Shown here one piece after another: positions 274 to 52,664 of a DNA stretch of 64,000 nucleotides (within the stretch, counting starts at the first letter, position 1; the number at the start of each line of letters is the position of its first letter). Both the position numbers and the translations under genes were made by a program. The stretch lies in assembly GCA_951406725.2 (NCBI GenBank), contig OX597818.1, positions 110,546,001 to 110,610,000 of the forward strand. Reading direction: 5' to 3'. The DNA is from Octopus vulgaris. Taxonomy: Eukaryota. The notes beneath the pieces were generated by a model. It saw nothing but the letters and a program-made list of their open reading frames with translations, was not told where the DNA came from and searched no databases.

Positions 274-1715
274 CTATAAAACCTCCTTCTACACAATGTT
301 TTTTGTTTTTCGTTGTGGAACGAATGCGAAAGCATCACTGTTGCTGCCGACACGCGAGCAGGCAACATAAAGCTGACGATGAGAGAAACATGGCTCTCCC
401 AAATGTATTCCCGCCACAGACAGTGTTTGACCCTGCGCTTTGTTAATTGACATTGCGAAACATGGCCTTACTGGGAACTGGGACCTCCGAAATATGAAAG
501 GTAGGTCTGCTCCTGATGGGAAAAGATGCATCATAGGTATGAGCACAACGTTGCCTCGACCGCTCCCTGTGATAATGGTGGCCTCAATCAGATTGGGAGA
601 TAAGGACTTAACGATCAAACGTGTGCCATTGCATTGTTTTTGGGGAACCAAATTTCTAATGAGCATTATAGGGGTACCAACTTTAAGTTTGAGAATGTGT
701 GGTCGTAGTCCGGGGGGCTCAAAGGAATTGAGTACCTCTATTGGATAGCTGATGACGTCCTCTGGGTCAGGAGTTGTATCGATAGACTTATATACATAGA
801 CATCCCCAGGAATGAGTTCTAGCATTTGACCATTAATATGGTGAACAGTTTTATTCCTCGGGGCCAGAATAGCTCTTTGGCCAATCTAATCCATATTCTG
901 ATAATTAGCTTGTAGATCTGGGAACACTGCATCTCTGAGATCAGAAGGCGTTTTAACAATGGTACAAATGGAATCGATGGCAATATTACCATTTTCATCC
1001 CCTGGTATTTTGCCTTCGCCAAGTGCAAGGAGGGTGTGAGAAAATGCTGCTGATGTGATATCACGTCGCATATGAGCACGCATATTGGTGTGAAGTTTGA
1101 GAGTCTTCACCAGTGGCCACAATGTGGATGACTTAAGACACGCACTTACTGCATCAGCTGTAGTCCCTTTGGGAATAACGGGAAGTGTTTGTCGGAAGTC
1201 CCCTGAAAGAAGAAGTGTTATGCCTCCCATGGGAGCTGAAGAGTGTTTGATGTCTCTGAGAGATCTATCTAGTGCCTCAAGAGCACGTCTGTGGGTCATC
1301 GTGCATTAATCTCAAACGATAAGCTTGCATCGTCTGAAGACTTCTGCCTGATCGGAGCTGTTACTGATGTTGCAAGTTGGTGTCTCAGTCTTCGCTAAGT
1401 CAAGCGGGAGCTTGAAAGTGGAGTGAGCTGTCCTGCCGCCTGGCAACAAAGTAACCGCAATTCCAGATGATGCCACAGCTAGGGCAATGCCTTGTGTTCG
1501 CCTAATCTCAGCCAATATTAATTTGTTGACAAAAGTTTTCCCAGTGCCCCCAGGAGCGTCCAGGAAAAAAATCACCCCAGCTTTGGCCCGGACTGAATTA
1601 ACAACGGAGTTGTAAGCGAACTTCTGTTCTGGAAGGAGCTTTGGTTCATTGTCGGCTATGTACTCGGCAAGCTCGTCAACATTAAAACATGTCTCACGCA
1701 GCAAATATGAAGACA
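274..1715 (-). pseudogene. Helitron Rep/Hel C-terminal PIF1-like helicase remnant (5' truncated, in-frame stops)
   Basis: ORFs 1312..1809, 886..1299 and 289..825 share one frame. They carry PIF1/Helitron motifs DAPGGTGKTF (Walker A), VASSGIA, KLIV*D*C (Walker B, WDEC), GDFRQTLPV, LAPRN, LKLKVGTPIMLIRN, FAMSINKAQGQTL, QLYVACSRV and terminal TKNIV*KEVL*. Confidence 0.95.
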
Positions 1716-1729
1716 GAGTGTTTGTGCCT

Positions 1730-1815
1730 ACACATGCCAAGTCACCACACAGTGGGACTGAACCCAGGACCATGTGTTTGGAACGTAGTTTGTTACCACA
1801 CAGCCACACCTGCTC
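1730..1815 (-). mobile_element. SINE family A tRNA-like head fragment
   Basis: Reverse complement of the head of the 10263 copy (gtggctgtgtggtaa...ggttcagtcccact); abuts the truncated Helitron. Confidence 0.8.
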
Positions 1816-3135
1816 CTATGTATGTGTGTGTGTGCGTATGTGTGTATGGGTAGATATATTATGCATGTATATATGTGTATATATATATATGTGTACATAT
1901 TACATGTACATCTATATATATACATCTACACATAAAATACAAAATACAAAGTTATATCTTGATATCGCTAGTGATAACAATACTCAAAATATATAAGAGA
2001 CTGGAATTGCAGGCCTGTCTCTTGCAATTTCGATCAATTGGATCTTGTCCTCCCTCTTGTATAGAAGTGTACGGCTGCAGCGAAATTCATTGTTGGAGTT
2101 TCTTCTATCGAAGGCATTTCAACAAAAATGCTTCCGTAAAGACGGTGAAAATATTGTCAATTTCCCCAAACAGGGACACAATTCAATTTTGAAACAATAA
2201 CCAAAGCCCCTTCTCCGAAAGTTAGGGGGGGTTACGGTCGGTTTACAATTAGTTAACAAATGCAACACAGCAACGTTTCCCTGACGAGGAACCAACAAAC
2301 GTGATTACAATAGTCAAACAGTAATAATAATAACAACAAACCTTTTTAATTTATCCCCATTTATGTGAAAGCACTTATTCAAGTTCAAGTCATTGATGCA
2401 ATATTATACGAATTGCTAATACACACACACACACACACACACATAATAAGGGTGAAAATTTGAATATTAATTTGATTAACATGAATTGAAAACCAGTGGT
2501 GTAGCATATAAGACCATAGCAGATCTTCCTCTAGCAAAAAGGATGACCAGTATTAATGGCTCATCCCTGTTATATAAATAGTTTCACTTTAATAGTTTCA
2601 CACTTGCAAAGAGAAAGTAGGAGAAAATATGGTGGTAATAGCAGGAGTAAACCACTTGAAATGAGAGAGGCAAATCGTAAAATATTGAGTTTTCTCGAAT
2701 TTTTGCTTAATTGGGGGTCAAACTGAAAAAACTTTACATGCCATGACCCAATCGAATCTACTTGGAAAAATCATAGGTAAATTCCAATTGAAGAAATTCT
2801 TTATTGTAGAATTGTATTAAAAAGAAACATGGGAACAGGCAGAGAAAATCTGCCTTTTATCATAAGAGATATATTAAGAACAATCTTACTTAGAAATGGA
2901 TGCGTGCGTTCCGTCATATAATAAATTAATAAATAAATAAAACATATGCATATATACACACATATATGTACGTACGTACCTCCACATGTATATATACATG
3001 CATACATGGGTACAGGGCACCAAAAAAATGTCGAGCACAATGAGAAACGAAAACATAAACACAAAATCAAGGAAATGGACATTTTTTTAAACAACGAAAA
3101 AAAGAGAGAACAGGACATACAACACAAGGAAAATT

Positions 3136-3196
3136 CCCTTTCTTCAGTCGCCTTTGTTTCATCTACTCCACGTTTCGACGGTCAAGGCGATACATG
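3136..3196 (-). ncRNA. Putative non-circularly permuted hammerhead ribozyme
   Basis: Minus strand reads catGTA tcgcctt g accgtc GAAACgtg ... aaggcga CTGAAGA aaggg. Stem III catgt/acgtg, stem I tcgcctt/aaggcga; stem II is weak in this copy. Confidence 0.6.
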
Positions 3197-4146
3197 ACTT
3201 AAATGAAACAATCCTTCCCGCGAAAATCAAATTAAATAAAATTTGAGATTTTTTTGCGGAGGGGTAAAAATGGTAACAAAAGCAAGACAGAAACGACAGT
3301 ACAAAATATAAACAGTAAAAGACAGGACAAGGGCAATAACAGTAACACAAACAAGAAGGGCTGTTAAGCCGAACGAGATAAAAAATTTTACGAACGCTAT
3401 TTTTTGAGAACGGTGAGGGAGCAACAGAAAGTGCCGTCTCTACTTGAAGGTAGCCAGGACAGAAAGACAGTAGCAGATTTCTCGTCGCGGGTCAACGACG
3501 GGAGGGAGGAGGAGGAGTAAGAGAAAGGGAGAGAAAAAAAGGGAATAGTTGTAGAGAAAAGAATGAAGAATGAGAGAGAGAGAGGGAGAGGCAGTAAGGT
3601 AGAAGAAAAGGAAAGCCAAAAGAATGAAGGCTGAGAAAGGGAGGAGACAGAGAGGTTAAGAGTGCGCATCATTATTAATATTAAGAACAATCTTACTTAG
3701 AAATGGATGCGTGCGTTCCGTTATATAATAAATTAATAAATATATAAAACATATGCATATATACACACATATATGTACTACCTACCTCCACATGTATATA
3801 TACATGCATACATGGGTACAGGACACCAAAAAAACGTCAAACACAATGAGAAACGAAAACATAAACACAAAACCAAGGAAATGGACATTTTTCTTAAACA
3901 ACGGAAAAAAAAGAGAGTACAGGACATACAACACAAGGAAAATTCCCCTTCTTCAGTCGCCTTTGTAAAAAAATTCATCGCGTTCGGCTTAACAGCTCTT
4001 CTTGTTTGTGTTACTGTTATTCTCCTTGTTCTATCTTTTACTATTTATATTTTGTACTGTCGTTACTGTCCATTTTTATCCCTCCGCAAAAAAATCTCAA
4101 ATCTTATTTAATTTGATTTTCGCGGGCAGGATTGTTTCATTAAAGT

Positions 4147-4207
4147 CATGTATCGCCTTGACCTTCGAAACTTGGAGTAGATGAAACAAAGGAGACTGAA
4201 GAAGGGG
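4147..4207 (+). ncRNA. Putative non-circularly permuted hammerhead ribozyme (inverted copy)
   Basis: catGTA tcgccttg accttc GAAACttg ... aaggaga CTGAAGA agggg, with one mismatch each in stems I and III. Confidence 0.55.
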
Positions 4208-4440
4208 AATTTTCCTTGTGTTGTATGTCCTGTACTCTCTTTTTTTTTCGTTGTTTAAAAAAATGTCCATTTCCTTGGTTTTGTGTTTATGTTTTCGTTT
4301 CTCATTGTGTTCGACGTTTTTTTTGGGTGTCCTGTACCCATGTATGCATTTATATATACATATGGAGGTAGGTACGTACATATATGTGTGTATATATGCA
4401 TATGTTTTATTTATTTATTAATTTATAAATATATATATAT

Positions 4441-5072
4441 AAATTTCGGTAAGTGGTGAAGCAATTTTTGTAGAACCCTAATTATAATTATTATTATTAT
4501 AATTATAGAATTTTTGTATAAGGTTACCAATAATGATTCTTTTAACATACCGAGTTACTTGGTAAAATTATTAATTATTAATTGATTAATTAACTTTACA
4601 CTTTATTATTATTGATAATATAATTCACTCCCTGATAGCAAACTGCAGTTTCTGCGGAATTACTCGTGGCACTCGTGGGTGATTGAGGAGGAGTGCGAGG
4701 TCTCATTCGTCTGTTTGAATTCGGAAGTACTGGTTTTTGGAGATAAGCTGTTCGATGGCGCATGGTCGAATACGTATGTTAATTATTAGTGCTCTCGAAT
4801 TTAAAATTGAAATACTATACTGACGACGGGAATAAGTGAGTAAAAATATGATTTTACATCTCTTTAACTCAGAAACGCGTATATAGTTAATCAAAGCCGG
4901 GTGGATTCGTTTTTTTCCCTATTTACCTACGTGTGTTGAGAGTATTACTGTCTGACGATATCTTATGGTAGTGGAATAGTATTTAACTGTTATTTCTAAA
5001 TTTCGGTGCGTGGTGAAGCAATTTTTGCTGAACCCTAGTTATAATTATGCTTATAATTATAGAATTTTTGTA
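4441..5072 (+). mobile_element. Retrozyme-like non-coding element with terminal direct repeat
   Basis: About 75 bp direct repeat (aaatttcggt..gtggtgaagcaatttttg...gaatttttgtata) at 4441-4520 and 4998-5072. It is bounded by (TA)n and contains an internal hammerhead. Confidence 0.7.
4814..4887 (+). ncRNA. Minimal type I hammerhead ribozyme
   Basis: actata CTGACGA [long stem II with gtaaaa/ttttac] GAAAC gc GTA tatagt. Perfect 6-bp stem I, palindromic ACGCGT stem III, GUA cleavage triplet. Confidence 0.8.
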
Positions 5073-5082
5073 TATATATATA

Positions 5083-5141
<59 letters not shown>

Positions 5142-5177
5142 TTGTATGTATGTATTTATCTATGTATATGTATATGG

Positions 5178-6078
5178 TACGTTGTCTGACCGCATGAACT
5201 TTGTTTTCATGCGGTTCATCTTCAGACCTACTGCAGCACTTTTGATGTCGAGCTCCGTCAGCATGGTCTGAAGCTGATCCATGTTTTCGGCGATGAGTAC
5301 GATGTCGTCAGCGAAACGGAGGTGAGTGAGGAGCTCGCCATTGATGTTGACACCACCTTGCCATTCGATGCCTCTGATGATCTGTTCGAGACATGCAGTG
5401 AAAAGTTTTGGGGAGATTGTATCTCCTTGCTTCACTCCCTTCCCGAATGGTGATCGGCAGTGATGAAATAGAGGAGGTGAGAGAATATGTCTACCTGGGA
5501 CATGAAGTAAATATGTGCCGGGATATCAAAAAGGAGATCTCACGGAGAGTAAGGGCCGGATGGAAGGCGTTCAATGGCATAAGGGATGTGCTCAAGGGAA
5601 GGTTGGACAGGACCACCCGCGCCAACCTCATTAACAGTGCAGTTCTGCTTGCAATGTTATATGGTAGTGAAACATGGGCTACCACAAAGAGAGAAGAGTA
5701 AAGACTGGTAACGGCTCAAAGAGCCATGGATAGGTCAAAGCTTGGTATCTCGTTGAGAGAGCACATAAATAACAAGATCATCAGAAAGAAGTCCAGCGTG
5801 AGAGATGTCATCGCAGAGTATACTCGCAGCAAGTATAGATGGGCTGGACACGTCGCCCGGCTCACCGATAATCGGTGGACGCACGCAGTTACCGAGTGGT
5901 ACCCGCGTGAGCGGAAAAGACCACCCGGAAGACCTCCACGACGGTGGAGTGACGATTTCAAGAGGACGATTGGGATCACGTGGATGAGAAAGGCGCGATC
6001 CAGAGAGGAGGGGACAGCGTGCTGTGACCAGCGGTGTCAAATGGACGCCTGACGGACTGGTCGGTCAAAGTGAAAGTG
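5178..6078. mobile_element. RTE-clade LINE, 5'-truncated with 5' inversion
   Basis: 5178-5444 minus encodes RT core (KQGDTISPKLF...HLRFADDIVL...GLKMNRMKTK). 5445-6052 plus continues the RT C-terminus (EYVYLG...RWAGHVAR...RPPGRPPRRWSDD). 3' tail aaagtgaaagtga; 12-bp TSD atatgtatatgg at 5166-5177 and 6079-6090. Confidence 0.93.
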
Positions 6079-9053: not shown

Positions 9054-9064
9054 AGTGTGTGATG

Positions 9065-9550
9065 AATAAAAATATATGCATACATACAAATATATATGTA
9101 CGTACCTACATCTACATGTGTATATACATGCATATATAAATAATTATACGTGAGTACAGGATACCACAACAAGACGTAGAAACGGGAAAAACAAAAAAAC
9201 AGTTACAGGACGTGCTACACAAGGAAAAAACCCCCGTCATCAGCTGTCGCTAGTAAACTCAAGCATGTTTAGAAGGCAAGACAGAACACTAATCCACTAG
9301 GCGTTCCTGTGAGAGAATTAAAATAAAATTCCAAGCAGCGGGGCAAAATGAGTACGAACACGAACAGGACGTAAGAATAAAATTGCAAAAATAAAAATAC
9401 ATGTACAAAAAATACAAATAAATACAAAACGAGAAAATAAAAAGAGAATACGATACGGGAAATCAAACACACAAGAGGACGAACGAAAAAGCCTTTTTTC
9501 TAGCATAGACGGAAGATACTGTGGCAGCGCGTGGAAGGCAGTCTTTTCAC
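9065..9550 (-). mobile_element. Diverged member of the 2869-4430 element family
   Basis: Shares gtacgtacctacatc...tatatacatgcat...gtacagga..cacaaggaaaa with the 2940/3750 copies; flanked by (TA)n. Confidence 0.65.
9231..9290 (-). ncRNA. Putative permuted hammerhead ribozyme (G12 mutated)
   Basis: Minus strand reads agtGTT ctgtc ttg ccttc TAAACat ... gacag CTGATGA c ggggg; stem I ctgtc/gacag. Confidence 0.45.
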
Positions 9551-13657: not shown

Positions 13658-13726
<69 letters not shown>

Positions 13727-13756
13727 GCGAGAATGAAGCAACAAGAATGGATAGGT

Positions 13757-13847
13757 TTTTAGTACAATCGTTTCATACAAGGACAGGTTTTATTAAAAGT
13801 TGCAAAAATTACAGCATATAAACGTGTCCCGTACTCATCAGCTAAAA
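13757..13847 (-). ncRNA. Type I hammerhead ribozyme (mirror copy)
   Basis: Reverse complement of 14837-14926. Confidence 0.75.
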
Positions 13848-14836
13848 TACATGTGAGTTCTCTAGACATCCTAGTGGTTGAGGCTATACTCATGAAGTAA
13901 TGTAGATAATTAAGTAACATAAACAGATTTCAAAAGTTCATTAAAGTTCTTTAAAGATGATGTACAGTCTTATCACAGAATTTTAAAAAAGTCTTAATAG
14001 CATCACAGAGAAGGTGACCTAATCCATAGTGCACATATGAATTTCCAGAGATATGATGAGGGATTACATACTCACAGAAGACAAATTTATCCATTGTTAA
14101 TTACAACGAGGTGGGTTTCAATTCCTGCTTATTAGCATTACAGAGAGGGTGAATTAATCCTTTGTATAGATGCACAATTTCCAATGGTGTAGGTGTAAAT
14201 TTCAAGGAATTTCATATTCACAGGCGATGAATTTATCAATGGTTGAACACAATGAGGTAGGTATCAATTCTTGCTATATGATTAGGTATTTGCCACATTA
14301 ATCACATTACTGCTATTTACAAGAGGCTGTAGCTATTTTTGTAGCAAAATAGCTACAGCCTCTTGTAAATAGCAGTAATGTGATTAATGTGGCAAATACC
14401 TAATCATATAGCAAGAATTGATACCTACCTCATTGTGTTCAACCATTGATAAATTCATCGCCTGTGAATATGAAATTCCTTGGAAATTTACACCTACACC
14501 ATTGGAAATTGTGCATCTATACAAAGGATTAATTCACCCTCTCTGTAATGCTAATAAGCAGGAATTGAAACCCACCTCGTTGTAATTAACAATGGATAAA
14601 TTTGTCTTCTGTGAGTATGTAATCCCTCATCATATCTCTGGAAATTCATATGTGCACTATGGATTAGGTCACCTTCTCTGTGATGCTATTAAGACTTTTA
14701 AAATTCTGTGATAAGACTGTACATCATCTTTAAAGAACTTTAATGAACTTTTGAAATCTGTTTATGTTACTTAATTATCTACATTACTTCATGAGTATAG
14801 CCTCAACCACTAGGATGTCTAGAGAACTCACATGTA

Positions 14837-14926
14837 TTTTAGCTGATGAGTACGGACACGTTTATATGCTGTAATTTTTGCAACTTTTAATAAAACCTGT
14901 CCTTGTATGAAACGATTGTACTAAAA
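14837..14926 (+). ncRNA. Minimal type I hammerhead ribozyme
   Basis: ttttag CTGATGA gtacggaca...tgtccttgtat GAAAC gatt GTA ctaaaa. 6-bp stem I, long stem II, 2-bp stem III, GUA site. Confidence 0.78.
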
Positions 14927-15068
14927 ACCTATCCATTCTTGTTGCTTCATTCTCGCTTATAATCACCCCACATTACTGTATTGTTAAATCAGTATAGTTT
15001 TTTTTGGTGCATCTAAGTTAGGTACCATATTCAAGTAAATTCATTTAAATTAACTTGAATCTTTATTG

Positions 15069-44052: not shown

Positions 44053-44056
<4 letters not shown>

Positions 44057-44359
44057 TATTACATTATATAAAAGGGCTTAGTAAAATAAATTACTTTGCC
44101 GCATACTGAACTCATTAGAAATAGCAGCTAAAAAACTTTTTTAAAACTATTTCTAATACTTAAAGAAAATCTCTCTCATATATAGCGTTTGCTTAATTCA
44201 ACTTTGTGAGTTGAATTAAGCAAACGCTATATATGAGAGAGATTTTCTTTAAGTATTAGAAATAGTTTTAAAAAAGTTTTTTAGCTGCTATTTCTAATGA
44301 GTTCAGTATGCGGCAAAGTAATTTATTTTACTAAGCCCTTTTATATAATGTAATAATTT
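44053..44359. repeat. Perfect palindrome (151-bp arms, 5-nt spacer)
   Basis: 44053-44203 is the reverse complement of 44209-44359. The right arm runs on to (TA)n at about 44447. Confidence 0.95.
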
Positions 44360-45849: not shown

Positions 45850-45930
<81 letters not shown>

Positions 45931-46019
45931 AACTTACTTGGAAAAGGATGCGTGGTATTCGATCATATAATAATATAAATAGTAATCACTCTGCCATCTG
46001 CTCTTTACTTGATGGATTA

Positions 46020-49204: not shown

Positions 49205-51456
49205 AATTTCTATGCTTTTACCAATCTTAGGAAGTAATTGTTAGAAATATTTTGAAATTAAACTGGATAATAAGAGCATATTTCAACGAATCGGTTTTAA
49301 TTAGACGCAAACATTTACAAGAAATAAGGAAAAAGAGAAGTTCAGTCAGTACACTGGCTTTTAAAATATTTTCCCTATTATTTCACTGGTTGTTCATTGT
49401 ATTCCGATCTACACAAACTGATTATATATTCAACACATGCAAACGTGCGTGATTCCAACTCGAATCTGCACAATTGTCCGAATGAATATCAGCTAAACGT
49501 TTGATCTTTTGGTATCATAACCATTCACCTGTCTATTAACCACTCCATAATGTTTTATTTAACTAGGCACAATGGGTTTCTCTGTTTCAATGGTTGGTGG
49601 TAATGCTAGTGGCATTCACTGAGAAGTAGTGGCTTTAATCACTTAATGAAACACATTAAATTCGTAAGTTTGAAAAAGAAGAAATACCTTCAACTGTCAA
49701 TCAAAAACCGATCTATGCCTTTACCTCTTCCCTCTCTCCGGCTTTAGTATATTACTCCCATTATGCTAATCAACTTGTGCAAATACAGTGTTAAAACATT
49801 GATAATGATTTATGTTAAATTGCTAATGGTTCAACAACGCTTAAGAGCGGATTTGTTTCCTAACAATAAGCAGTTTGGGTGGGTATCGAACGATGATAGT
49901 GTCACGCTGTTGTCCGTATAGTTGTTGTTGATGTTAATGATGCAAGTGATATGCGTTTTAGTGTTTTATTTATAAAAGAAATCATTAATAAATATTTAGA
50001 TATCTGTTGATAACCCTTGCGACGTGACACTTTCAGAATCTAATTATTGGACATTGATCGCGAATGGTTGTTTCGTAAACGAGTCAGATAGTTTCTTTTT
50101 CTCCCTCTCTGTTCTACTTAATGGCCTGTAATATAACAAGCAAAAGAAGAGGGTTGTTGAACCCAGTTCAATCTATGAAGCAGTTAAATTACCTGTGGTA
50201 GCCATGTCCTCTCATCAGAATAATTTGTTTTGGATTTCATTGCCGCAATATAAAGAGATAATCACTAGATTAATAAAGCAAAAAAGATAATCCCACTCAC
50301 TAGACTCGTTTAACATTTTAGAATCGTTTTATTTTATTTTCGCAATTCCTTCTATCTCAGTTCTCCATCTTTATCTTCAGTTATCATCGAAGAACTAAAG
50401 ATAAGCGATTTGACAAAGAAATCCCGGTATATATTTCATTAAAATTACATAAAAAATGGAATTGAGTTGCAGGATTGCTGTACACAATTAGCTCGATTAT
50501 TCGAGTTTCAGTTGACAGGGTCCAGGAAAATATCCGAAAACATCTTAACGCTTGTTTTAAGAGAGATCATTTATGCTGTTAACTTAATTATGATGTTCAT
50601 GGAAACATAATCTGATGTTGTTCCTTCTCTTTTTTTTTTTATTATCAACAGATATCTAAATATTTATTAATGATTTCTTTTATAAATAAAACACTAAAAC
50701 GCATATCACTTGCATCATTAACATCAACAACAACTATACGGACAACAGCGTGACACTATCATCGTTCGATACCCACCCAAACTGCTTATTGTTAGGAAAC
50801 AAATCCGCTCTTAAGCGTTGTTGAACCATTAGCAATTTAACATAAAACATTATCAATGTTTTAACACCGTATTTGCACAAGTTAATTAGCATAATGGGAG
50901 TAATATACTAAAGCCAGAGAGAGAGAGAGGGAAGAGGTAAAGGCATAGATCGGTTTTTGATTGACAGTTGAAGGTATTTCTTCTTTTTCAAACTTACGAA
51001 TTTAATGTGTTTCATTAAGTGATTAAAGCCACTACTTCTCATTGAATGCCACTAGCATTACCACCAACCATTGAAACAGAGAAACCCATTGTGCCTAGTT
51101 AAATAAAACATTATGGAGTGGTTAATAGACAGGTGAGTGGTTATGATACCAAAAGATCAAACGATTAGCTGATATTCATTCGGACAATTGTGCAGATTCA
51201 AGTTGGAATCACGCACGTTTGCATGTGTTGAATATATAATCAGTTTGTGTAGATCGGAATACAATGAACAACCAGTGAAATAATAGGGAAAGTATTTTAA
51301 AAGCCAGTGTACTGACTGAACTTCTCTTTTTCCTTATTTCTTGTAAATGTTTGCGTCTAATTAAAACCGATTCGTTGAAATATGCTCTTATTATCCAGTT
51401 TAATTTCAAAATATTTCTAACAATTACTTTCTAAGATTGGTAAAAGCATAGAAATT
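49205..51456. repeat. Large inverted repeat: about 810-bp arms, 628-bp spacer
   Basis: 49205-50013 is nearly the reverse complement of 50642-51456, with roughly a dozen differences by eye. Confidence 0.95.
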
Positions 51457-51944: not shown

Positions 51945-52570
51945 TGTGAATATATGGGTACAAGACATCACCAACGGTTCAAACATGAAATACGTAAACA
52001 AACGGATTAAATACATAAACAACGAGAAAAAAAAGGAGAATAGGACAAGTAAAAACAGTGAAAAACAGTTGTTGGCTGACTATCTACTCCTCATTTCGAG
52101 CATTCAACGACAATATTGGGCTTCAAAGACAGATGCTCCCATAAATTCTAAAAACAATTTGGGATTTCTAGAAGGTCAAAGATGGGAACAAAAACAGGAC
52201 AGTTGAGACATACAAGGAAACCGAACGAAAATAAACATGGAGGGTCGCTAGACCAGAACGAGAGGAAAACAGTTTATCTTCGTTCGGTTTCCTTGTATGT
52301 CTCCACTGTCTTGTTTTTGCTCCCAGCTTTGACCCTCCATAAATCCTAAATTTTATTTTAGAATTTGTGGGAGTAACTGTCTTTGAAGACTCATATTGTC
52401 GTTGAATAAGCGAAATGAGGAGCAGATAGACAGCCGACAACTGATGAAGGGTCCTTTCTCTGTGTTTGCTTGTCTTGTTTTCCATTTTTACTCGTTGTTT
52501 ATGTATTTAACCCATTTGTTCAGGTATTTCATGTTTGAAACGTTGGTGACGTCCTGTGCCCATATAGCAT
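51945..52570. mobile_element. Inverted pair of the 2869-4430 element family
   Basis: 51950-52230 is an imperfect reverse complement of 52280-52565. It shares atgggtacaagaca/gtcctgtgcccat with the 3005/4330 copies and is flanked by microsatellites. Confidence 0.75.
52390..52452 (+). ncRNA. Putative non-circularly permuted hammerhead ribozyme
   Basis: ctcATA ttgtcg ttg aataagc GAAATgag ... cgacaa CTGATGA agggt. Stem III ctcat/atgag and stem I ttgtcg/cgacaa are both perfect. Confidence 0.62.
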
Positions 52571-52664
52571 GTATATATATATATATATATATTATTTACT
52601 ATTTATTATTTAATTGAACGCCACAATTCCATTTCCGAGTAAGTTTATATATATAAATATACAG

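Follow-up and report, generated by a model that had tools for sequence, protein, structure and literature searches.

The 807-bp unit found within the window (the whole stretch of DNA that was analysed, 64 kb of microsatellite-rich animal DNA) is on balance best read as a decayed, short, non-coding repeat that would have been moved by Naiads as a passenger of Penelope-like elements (PLEs) and that carries a permuted hammerhead predicted to cut only across two copies. The parts of this reading differ in firmness. It is very probable that the permuted hammerhead fold is conserved, and the unit is likely to be a PLE passenger. Judging from the modeled fold, intact members of the family would probably cleave, and the chances that the predicted cleavage would require two copies appear to be about even.

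Positions 2871-3157 matched positions 3678-3966 with 95.2% identity over 290 columns and a spacing of 807 (self-BLAST and a repeat finder), the tandem part thus comprising 807 plus 289 bp, or 1.36 units. In addition, the reverse complement of 2921-3397 corresponded to 3959-4426 (90.2% over 481 columns in self-BLAST). The E-values of the tandem and inverted matches were 1e-128 or lower, so that chance is excluded by far. Read on the minus strand, an inverted truncated copy (INV) is followed by a truncated tandem copy and then by the full unit (Table 1). INV meets the truncated tandem copy head to head, with a few similar bases at the joint, and stops short of the final stretch of about 50 nt, the tail, which both tandem copies reach. 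Over the 243 columns common to all three copies, 9, 6, and 5 private differences were observed, a star pattern as from one tandem template, which on the sequence is consistent with a single insertion followed by a decay of about 2 to 4% per copy. No target-site duplication was seen at the insertion of the 807-bp unit. These values confirm the preliminary description in its proposal of a tandem of about 807 bp (about 1.35 units) joined to an inverted partial copy.

Table 1. Positions of the unit, its copies, the permuted motif, and related families in the window
Feature	Position	Strand	Remarks
Full non-coding unit, 807 bp	2871..3677	-	RNA sense strand deduced from motif and tail
Tail, about 50 nt	2871..2920	-	On both tandem copies, absent from INV
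Complete permuted hammerhead motif, copy A1	3141..3217	-	In full unit
A1, 5' strands		-	IIa 3217-3213, P4a 3211-3200, IIIa 3197-3192, GUA with H17 at 3191
A1, middle		-	Ia 3190-3185, IIb 3181-3177, GAAA from 3176, IIIb 3173-3168
A1, 3' part		-	P4b 3165-3154, Ib 3153-3148, CUGAAGA 3147-3141
5'-truncated tandem copy (pseudo-LTR), 289 bp	3678..3966	-	95% identity
Half motif in partial copy	3950..3966	-	Stem I strand and CUGAAGA only
Inverted 5'-truncated copy (INV), 468 bp	3959..4426	+	Unit positions 3397 to 2921
Complete motif in INV	4126..4202	+	H17 4152, GAAA 4167, CUGAAGA 4196
Short (TA)n run, possible target	4429..4441	.	Outer end of INV
Third related family (53-59%)	9063..9400	-	GUU site, H17 9285, CUGAUGA 9243
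Left arm of the 52-kb head-to-head pair	51951..52269	-	Stem II 5/5, core hit by deletion, without tail
Related family, right arm of the same pair	52270..52646	+	With motif and tail, 58% over motif
Right-arm motif		+	H17 52395, GAAA 52412, CUGAUGA 52441

A partial tandem accompanied by an inverted copy is a known insertion pattern and is ordinary for PLEs, whose insertions show a partial tandem, an adjacent inverted truncated copy, and a one-sided tail of 30 to 40 bp (PMC8557442). Here the partial tandem, or pseudo-LTR (pLTR), is represented by the 1.36 units, and a 5' inverted truncated copy was present at 3959-4426 and also in the head-to-head pair at 51951-52646, which bears its tail on one arm only. 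The tail of the unit is likewise one-sided, although it is longer (about 50 nt) than those described. The Penelope-style arrangement suggested earlier, a partial tandem plus a 5' inverted copy, is upheld by this tail and by the head-to-head relatives. The tail contains a short GGA/UCC stem and an AC-rich loop, and in PLEs the tail has been tied to two internal start sites of reverse transcription in an AC-rich stem-loop (PMC11167929). PLEs have been annotated in octopus (PMC13282606). TA runs were observed at 4429-4441 and at the ends of the relatives, such runs being very common within the window.

In the tandem reading of the unit, the longest stop-free stretch was 110 codons, and the longest one starting from Met was 91 codons. 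None of the four stop-free frames of the unit reached the Pfam cut-off (two weak matches, E 0.05-0.07), and no ORF with RT and GIY-YIG, as in autonomous PLEs, was found in the 807-bp unit, in agreement with the earlier claim that the element lacks coding capacity. Exact-pattern scans for the unit rendered no hits in metagenome contigs and none in viral contigs. Parts of the unit were contained in 20 of the 24 sequencing runs listed, from 9 studies, with a best share of 0.51 and no RNA run among those listed as containing it; these runs were left out of the evidence.

CUGAAGA and a hairpin are present in all three copies of the unit, with no GAAA downstream. A type I reading of CUGAAGA plus hairpin was rejected since no GAAA follows, and a type II reading of the motif was rejected because it has no stem I. 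Rfam gave no matches at the gathering score over the whole window; at E values up to 10, the region 2400-5200 yielded 33 matches, none of them to ribozymes and most to microRNA models on TA-rich repeats. Similarly, a strict six-order scan, which allowed no mismatches and which A1 and INV escaped, each carrying a lesion, found no fit in the element to the orders of types I to III (CGS, GSC, and SCG). The retrozyme- or Penelope-type (type I) hammerhead reading of the preliminary description, with no type I motif in the unit and a blank result in Rfam, was not supported. For its part, the proposal of a ribozyme motif in the repeated part stands for the CUGAAGA half, which is repeated, but not for the complete motif, which occurs only in the full unit and in INV.

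In RNA sense, the full unit (2871-3677, minus strand) consists of a pyrimidine-rich 5' part, the ribozyme-like motif, and the 3' end. In the alignment of the relatives, GAAA lies about 29 nt upstream of CUGANGA, and the motif follows the order IIa, P4a, IIIa, NUH, Ia, IIb, GAAA, IIIb, P4b, Ib, CUGANGA. The core numbering (C3, A9, G10.1, H17) is that of the standard hammerhead scheme. As judged from its letters, the motif is a type SGC hammerhead that has been made circular and then opened at A9/G10.1, in which P4 would replace the stem I/II interaction helix of SGC. The letters kept, at the level of sequence, are C3 to A9, GAAA, the N-U-H site, A15.1-U16.1, and G10.1-C11.1. In A1, pairing was complete in stem I (6/6), stem III (6/6), and P4 (12/12), and 4 of 5 pairs were present in stem II. 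INV showed 5/6 pairs in stem I, 5/6 in stem III, 11/12 in P4, and 4/5 in stem II, a single mismatch per helix and every one at a position that is paired in A1. CUGANGA, GAAA, NUH, and A15.1-U16.1 were complete in A1, INV, and the 52395 copy, and the two other copies were decayed. Lesions were observed in every genomic copy, with one stem II mismatch each in A1 and INV, and just 3/5 stem II pairs in the right-arm (52371) copy. Reverse transcription went through the uncut motif in at least five copies.

With the 807-bp unit as the query, nhmmer rendered three further copies in the window, with E-values from 1e-11 to 1e-15 (best E in the control, the reversed window, 2e-3). The three families of the window are 53 to 59% identical over the motif region. 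In the 9285 copy, GAAA is decayed by one letter and G12 is lost. Tail-like ends were also observed at 52628 (+) and 45948 (-). A solitary tail-like 3' end was located at 45927-45999 (-) beside a microsatellite, with no motif upstream.

When the 35 CTGANGA sites of the window were scored with the four-helix model, the four homologous copies came out on top (57, 49, 43, and 43), followed by a site scoring 35. The best score among 3960 sites in 150 shuffled windows was 37, a shuffle count that overstates significance because the scan windows were set after the motif had been seen and because A1/INV and the 52-kb arms are sister pairs. In alignment A2, made up of five rows from three families, 75.4% of 126 cells were paired, versus 40 to 49% in slid registers. 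Both sides had changed in 11 of 26 pairs, and the covariation score was reached by 0 of 500 shuffles, in an alignment where the cut-site block of one row is out of register and the rows are kin in pairs, so that kin rows can beat shuffles. As in hammerheads, three helices with covariation and the pair G10.1-C11.1 were found, the latter and A15.1-U16.1 being retained in all five rows.

Naiads are reported to lack canonical hammerheads (Craig et al. 2021, PMC8557442). Some of them contain a CUGANGA in the 3' UTR, with GAAA 35 to 50 nt away on either side, that fits no descriptor; the labels of that source are HHR_half_core for 8 records and HHR_core at 10 places, and no fold accompanies them in its accessible portion (PMC8557442). 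In the consensus file of the same study, as far as it was accessible, the permuted order was recognized by eye in 9 of 54 Naiad records (6 independent sequences), a lower bound given that line breaks hide some motif-word matches and that the matches covered were 1-60 out of 62 with one core word, 5-14 with three other words, and 1-15 with two GAAA words. In these nine records, the helices read by eye were of 4 to 6 bp (stem II, Watson-Crick), 5 to 11 bp (stem III), 4 to 6 bp (stem I), and 5 to 10 bp (P4). By the same kind of reading, Naiad_Obim and Naiad_Ovul showed a GUA site, a 6-bp stem I, a 5-bp stem III, and the SGC order; in three Acropora records the pre-GAAA strand pairs with a far 5' strand and not with the strand after CUGAUGA; and Naiad-2_Movir and a Clytia record, named by file order only, match the permuted order. 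Hits 31 and 37 also match it, and from file order they are probably Naiad_Plae and probably Naiad_EuTe, respectively. Hits 31 and 37, the Clytia record, and Naiad-2_Movir were read only after the model had been fixed. Naiad_Esco, Naiad-2_Skow, Naiad-Ppla, and the spider and ostracod hits were ambiguous by eye and are not among the nine. No motif was seen by eye at the ends of Omin, Adux, Naiad-1_Skow, Chem-1, Chem-2, and Movir-1 in the portion of the file that was covered, and seven nematode Naiad records (File S5) fitted type CSG instead (by eye). The cleavable triplets among the motifs across phyla were GUA, AUA, GUU, UUC, and AUC.

Naiads have in common with the unit the partial tandem, the inverted 5'-truncated copy, the one-sided tail, possibly the (TA)n context, and the lack of a canonical hammerhead; like them, the unit contains core halves in an odd order. 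By eye, the 3' ends of Naiad_Obim and Naiad_Ovul carry a GGAA...CATCC motif similar to the tail of the 807-bp unit. This likeness and the repeat types present suggest that the DNA of the window is octopus-like. The unit differs from these two elements in having no ORF, in the distance of its motif from the end (∼320 nt versus about 115), and in its stem sequences. A partner of the Naiad type, rather than Penelope proper, is the more plausible.

Insertion and cleavage may be pictured as follows. By extension from published work (PMC11167929), the PLE RT/GIY-YIG protein would use both strands of an AT-rich target to prime reverse transcription. Starting at two sites close to the 3' end and separated by about 50 nt, it would yield cDNAs of 1.36 units and 468 nt, which would be joined head to head. 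Uncut RNA is the main substrate for PLE insertion (PMC11167929). Cleavage is predicted to occur after GUA, at 3191/3190. In the predicted fold of A1, stem III and P4, split by a 2x2 loop, form one rod, with mean pair probabilities of 0.99 and 0.93; it is less populated in the other copies (P4 0.72, 0.87, 0.07, and 0.0, the last two values belonging to the 52-kb arms). The cut site and GAAA lie in a loop at one end of the rod, and IIa and Ib-CUGANGA exit from the other end with linkers of 0 to 1 nt. An A-form estimate gives about 55 angstrom for the 20-bp rod and about 17 for the 6-bp stem I, and with these lengths a lone chain would have to fold back sharply. The helix lengths therefore suggest an active site that would be built from two units, in a tandem transcript or an RNA dimer, with one unit supplying CUGANGA and half of stem II and the other supplying the cut site and GAAA. 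On this model, cleavage between two units would be a simpler reading than fold-back. Tandem precursors would split slowly, and single units would stay whole for reverse transcription. The start of the partial tandem copy falls within the motif, 34 nt downstream of the predicted cut. This start is compatible both with a template that had already been cleaved there and with a reverse transcriptase that stalled at P4.

Cleavage of the same element and fold as a monomer is an unlikely alternative, whether as a plain SGC hammerhead, with stem II formed by the G-rich strand after CUGANGA and the upstream strand acting as a switch, or as the core-opened form bent sharply between stem III and P4. When mismatches were allowed, the plain SGC model also ranked the four copies first of the 35 CTGANGA sites (32, 28, 28, and 27), a score of 27 being reached by 1 of 3857 shuffled sites, and stems I and III covaried (85.7% of 70 cells paired, 7/15 pairs changed on both sides). 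Monomeric SGC RNAs are also known whose interaction helix follows stem III without a spacer (PMC10085705). The weak part of the plain SGC fit is a stem II formed from the strand after CUGANGA. In the four rows offering both options, that strand made 13 of 20 pairs, only 8 of them Watson-Crick, versus 15 of 20, all Watson-Crick, for the upstream strand, and the motif was therefore not filed as plain SGC. With G-U pairs included, the strand after CUGANGA pairs 4/5 in INV and 5/5 in the 9285 copy, where a plain SGC is possible, but it does not in A1. Against a monomer, too, the strand after CUGANGA is unpaired with IIb and the upstream strand is fully paired, by eye, in the Acropora, Clytia, Movir-2, hit 31, and hit 37 sequences of the consensus file (PMC8557442). 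Moreover, fold-back would need a P4 longer than stem III, and the lengths are inconsistent in this respect (12 versus 6 here, 5 versus 10 in hit 37).

Instead of a discrete non-autonomous family, the locus could be a fusion of 5'-truncated fragments, all derived from the long non-coding 3' region of an autonomous element (a Naiad or other PLE), the 807-bp period being a template-jump accident. The tandem junction was seen at one locus only in the 64-kb window, the 52-kb and 9-kb relatives are truncated with no tandem seen in them, and the same motif closes the roughly 1 kb of non-coding 3' sequence of Naiad_Obim and Naiad_Ovul (PMC8557442), all of which would suit such fragments; this origin is nevertheless quite improbable, given the star-wise copy differences, the lack of an ORF remnant in the unit, and the short non-autonomous PLEs with pLTRs already described (PMC8557442). 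A classical non-LTR retrozyme, in which type I hammerheads would cut tandem transcripts into 0.8-kb monomers that circularise, is much less probable still. The definition of a retrozyme calls for at least two units, each with its own type I hammerhead, and the retrozymes of animals are also non-coding, tandem, PLE-linked, and ribozyme-bearing, of a similar unit size, with a range of 51 to 972 bp that includes the present unit (bioRxiv 10.64898/2026.07.22.740005). Longer arrays elsewhere in the genome could yield monomers. However, complete type I hammerheads in at least two consecutive units were not found here, the unit has no type I motif, and the one-sided tail and inverted copy suggest internal priming on uncut RNA (PMC11167929). 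As the partial copy is without the cut site and GAAA, a transcript of the locus has one site and not two, and with a single complete motif per strand no 0.8-kb monomer or circle can be produced here by two cuts. The self-processing to monomers or circles of about 0.8 kb that had been proposed is thus contradicted at this locus; the idea would require longer arrays, none of which were seen here, and such circles are improbable for the unit. Animal non-LTR retrozymes were reportedly described by Cervera and de la Pena in 2020. Least probable of all is conservation of the fold for another role (protein binding, pausing of reverse transcription, or 3'-end formation) or as a hammerhead relic. The hammerhead of an Anolis PLE is dispensable for insertion in vitro and cuts only with protein (PMC11167929), and the end of the partial copy, 3 to 4 nt into the base of P4, fits stalling at a stable rod; against this stands the retention across phyla of all catalytic core letters and of a cleavable triplet while the stems vary.

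The preferred reading, a core-opened hammerhead cutting across two copies, can be set against the known orders. Eckert et al. 2023 counted six orders of the blocks S, G, and C, including non-circular ones, taking it that CUGANGA is never separated from its two flanking stem strands (PMC10085705). The type SGC RNA HRIMA-1 was obtained from soil, spruce, and sludge RNA and not from animal genomes, and only two natural CSG sequences figure in the accessible text (PMC10085705). A term search of the supplement, in its available part, returned no Octopus, Metazoa, Eukaryota, or Mollusca (PMC10085705). The present motif shows the S, G, C order and, as P4, the helix joining stems I and II that characterize type SGC. 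HRIMA-1 and its variant have the same order of cut site, GAAA, and CUGANGA, a short stem I/II linker, and an extra helix that connects stems I and II at their outer ends. In contrast to HRIMA-1, the motif here has the 10.x strand of its stem II, together with one of the two strands of the extra helix, 5' of all else, and its chain is broken at A9/G10.1, a joint that Eckert et al. assumed to be unbreakable. Other PLE hammerheads resemble the motif in having a core in the terminal repeat, a conserved G10.1-C11.1, and a probable need for two copies, the minimal ones requiring a dimer (PMC4209133). They differ in being type I hammerheads whose stem III is minimal or absent, whereas a full stem III and double-pseudoknot wiring are found here. 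In a search that covered few subscription journals, neither a permuted hammerhead in Naiads or PLEs nor a core opened at A9/G10.1 was found to have been described. The PLE insertion pattern and non-autonomous PLEs are already known; what appears to be new is an order outside the six of Eckert et al.

It is conceivable, at somewhat less than even chances, that Naiads and their passengers carry a seventh natural wiring, opened at A9/G10.1 and cutting only across two copies. If so, the RNA would count its own tandem copies; together with the CSG type of nematodes, this would explain the apparent lack of hammerheads in Naiads, and animal genomes would constitute a large reservoir of ribozymes permuted in non-circular ways. 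The permuted fold would account for the unexplained 'half cores' of Naiads, which are dominant in many invertebrate genomes (PMC8557442). A core-opened form in animal retroelements would break the joined-strand assumption of Eckert et al. 2023 and extend non-circular orders to animals.

Several neighbouring elements were observed in the window. A 557-bp unit with an 87-bp terminal repeat (86%) at 4434-5074 abuts the INV arm and may be another short PLE-type element. It contains CTGACGA, its SGC fit being at chance level (score 19, reached by 97 of 3857 shuffled sites), and it was excluded from the count. Broken frames at 289-1815 (-) resemble by eye a Pif1-type helicase, presumably as in Helitrons, and those at 5160-6052 we take to be RT-like frames of an RTE-like LINE with an internal inversion. 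At 13722-14961, a near-perfect inverted pair (98.9%) lies beside a (TA)n run, and none of five read-through frames gave a Pfam match; it is probably a young, separate PLE-type insertion. A type I hammerhead with a long loop II can be fitted at the end of each arm (C3 at 14843, plus strand, and at 13841, minus strand), and Rfam misses both. Finally, an 815-bp inverted repeat (98%) with a 630-bp spacer was located at 49205-51456, and a 307-bp near-perfect palindrome (98%) was located at 44053-44359.
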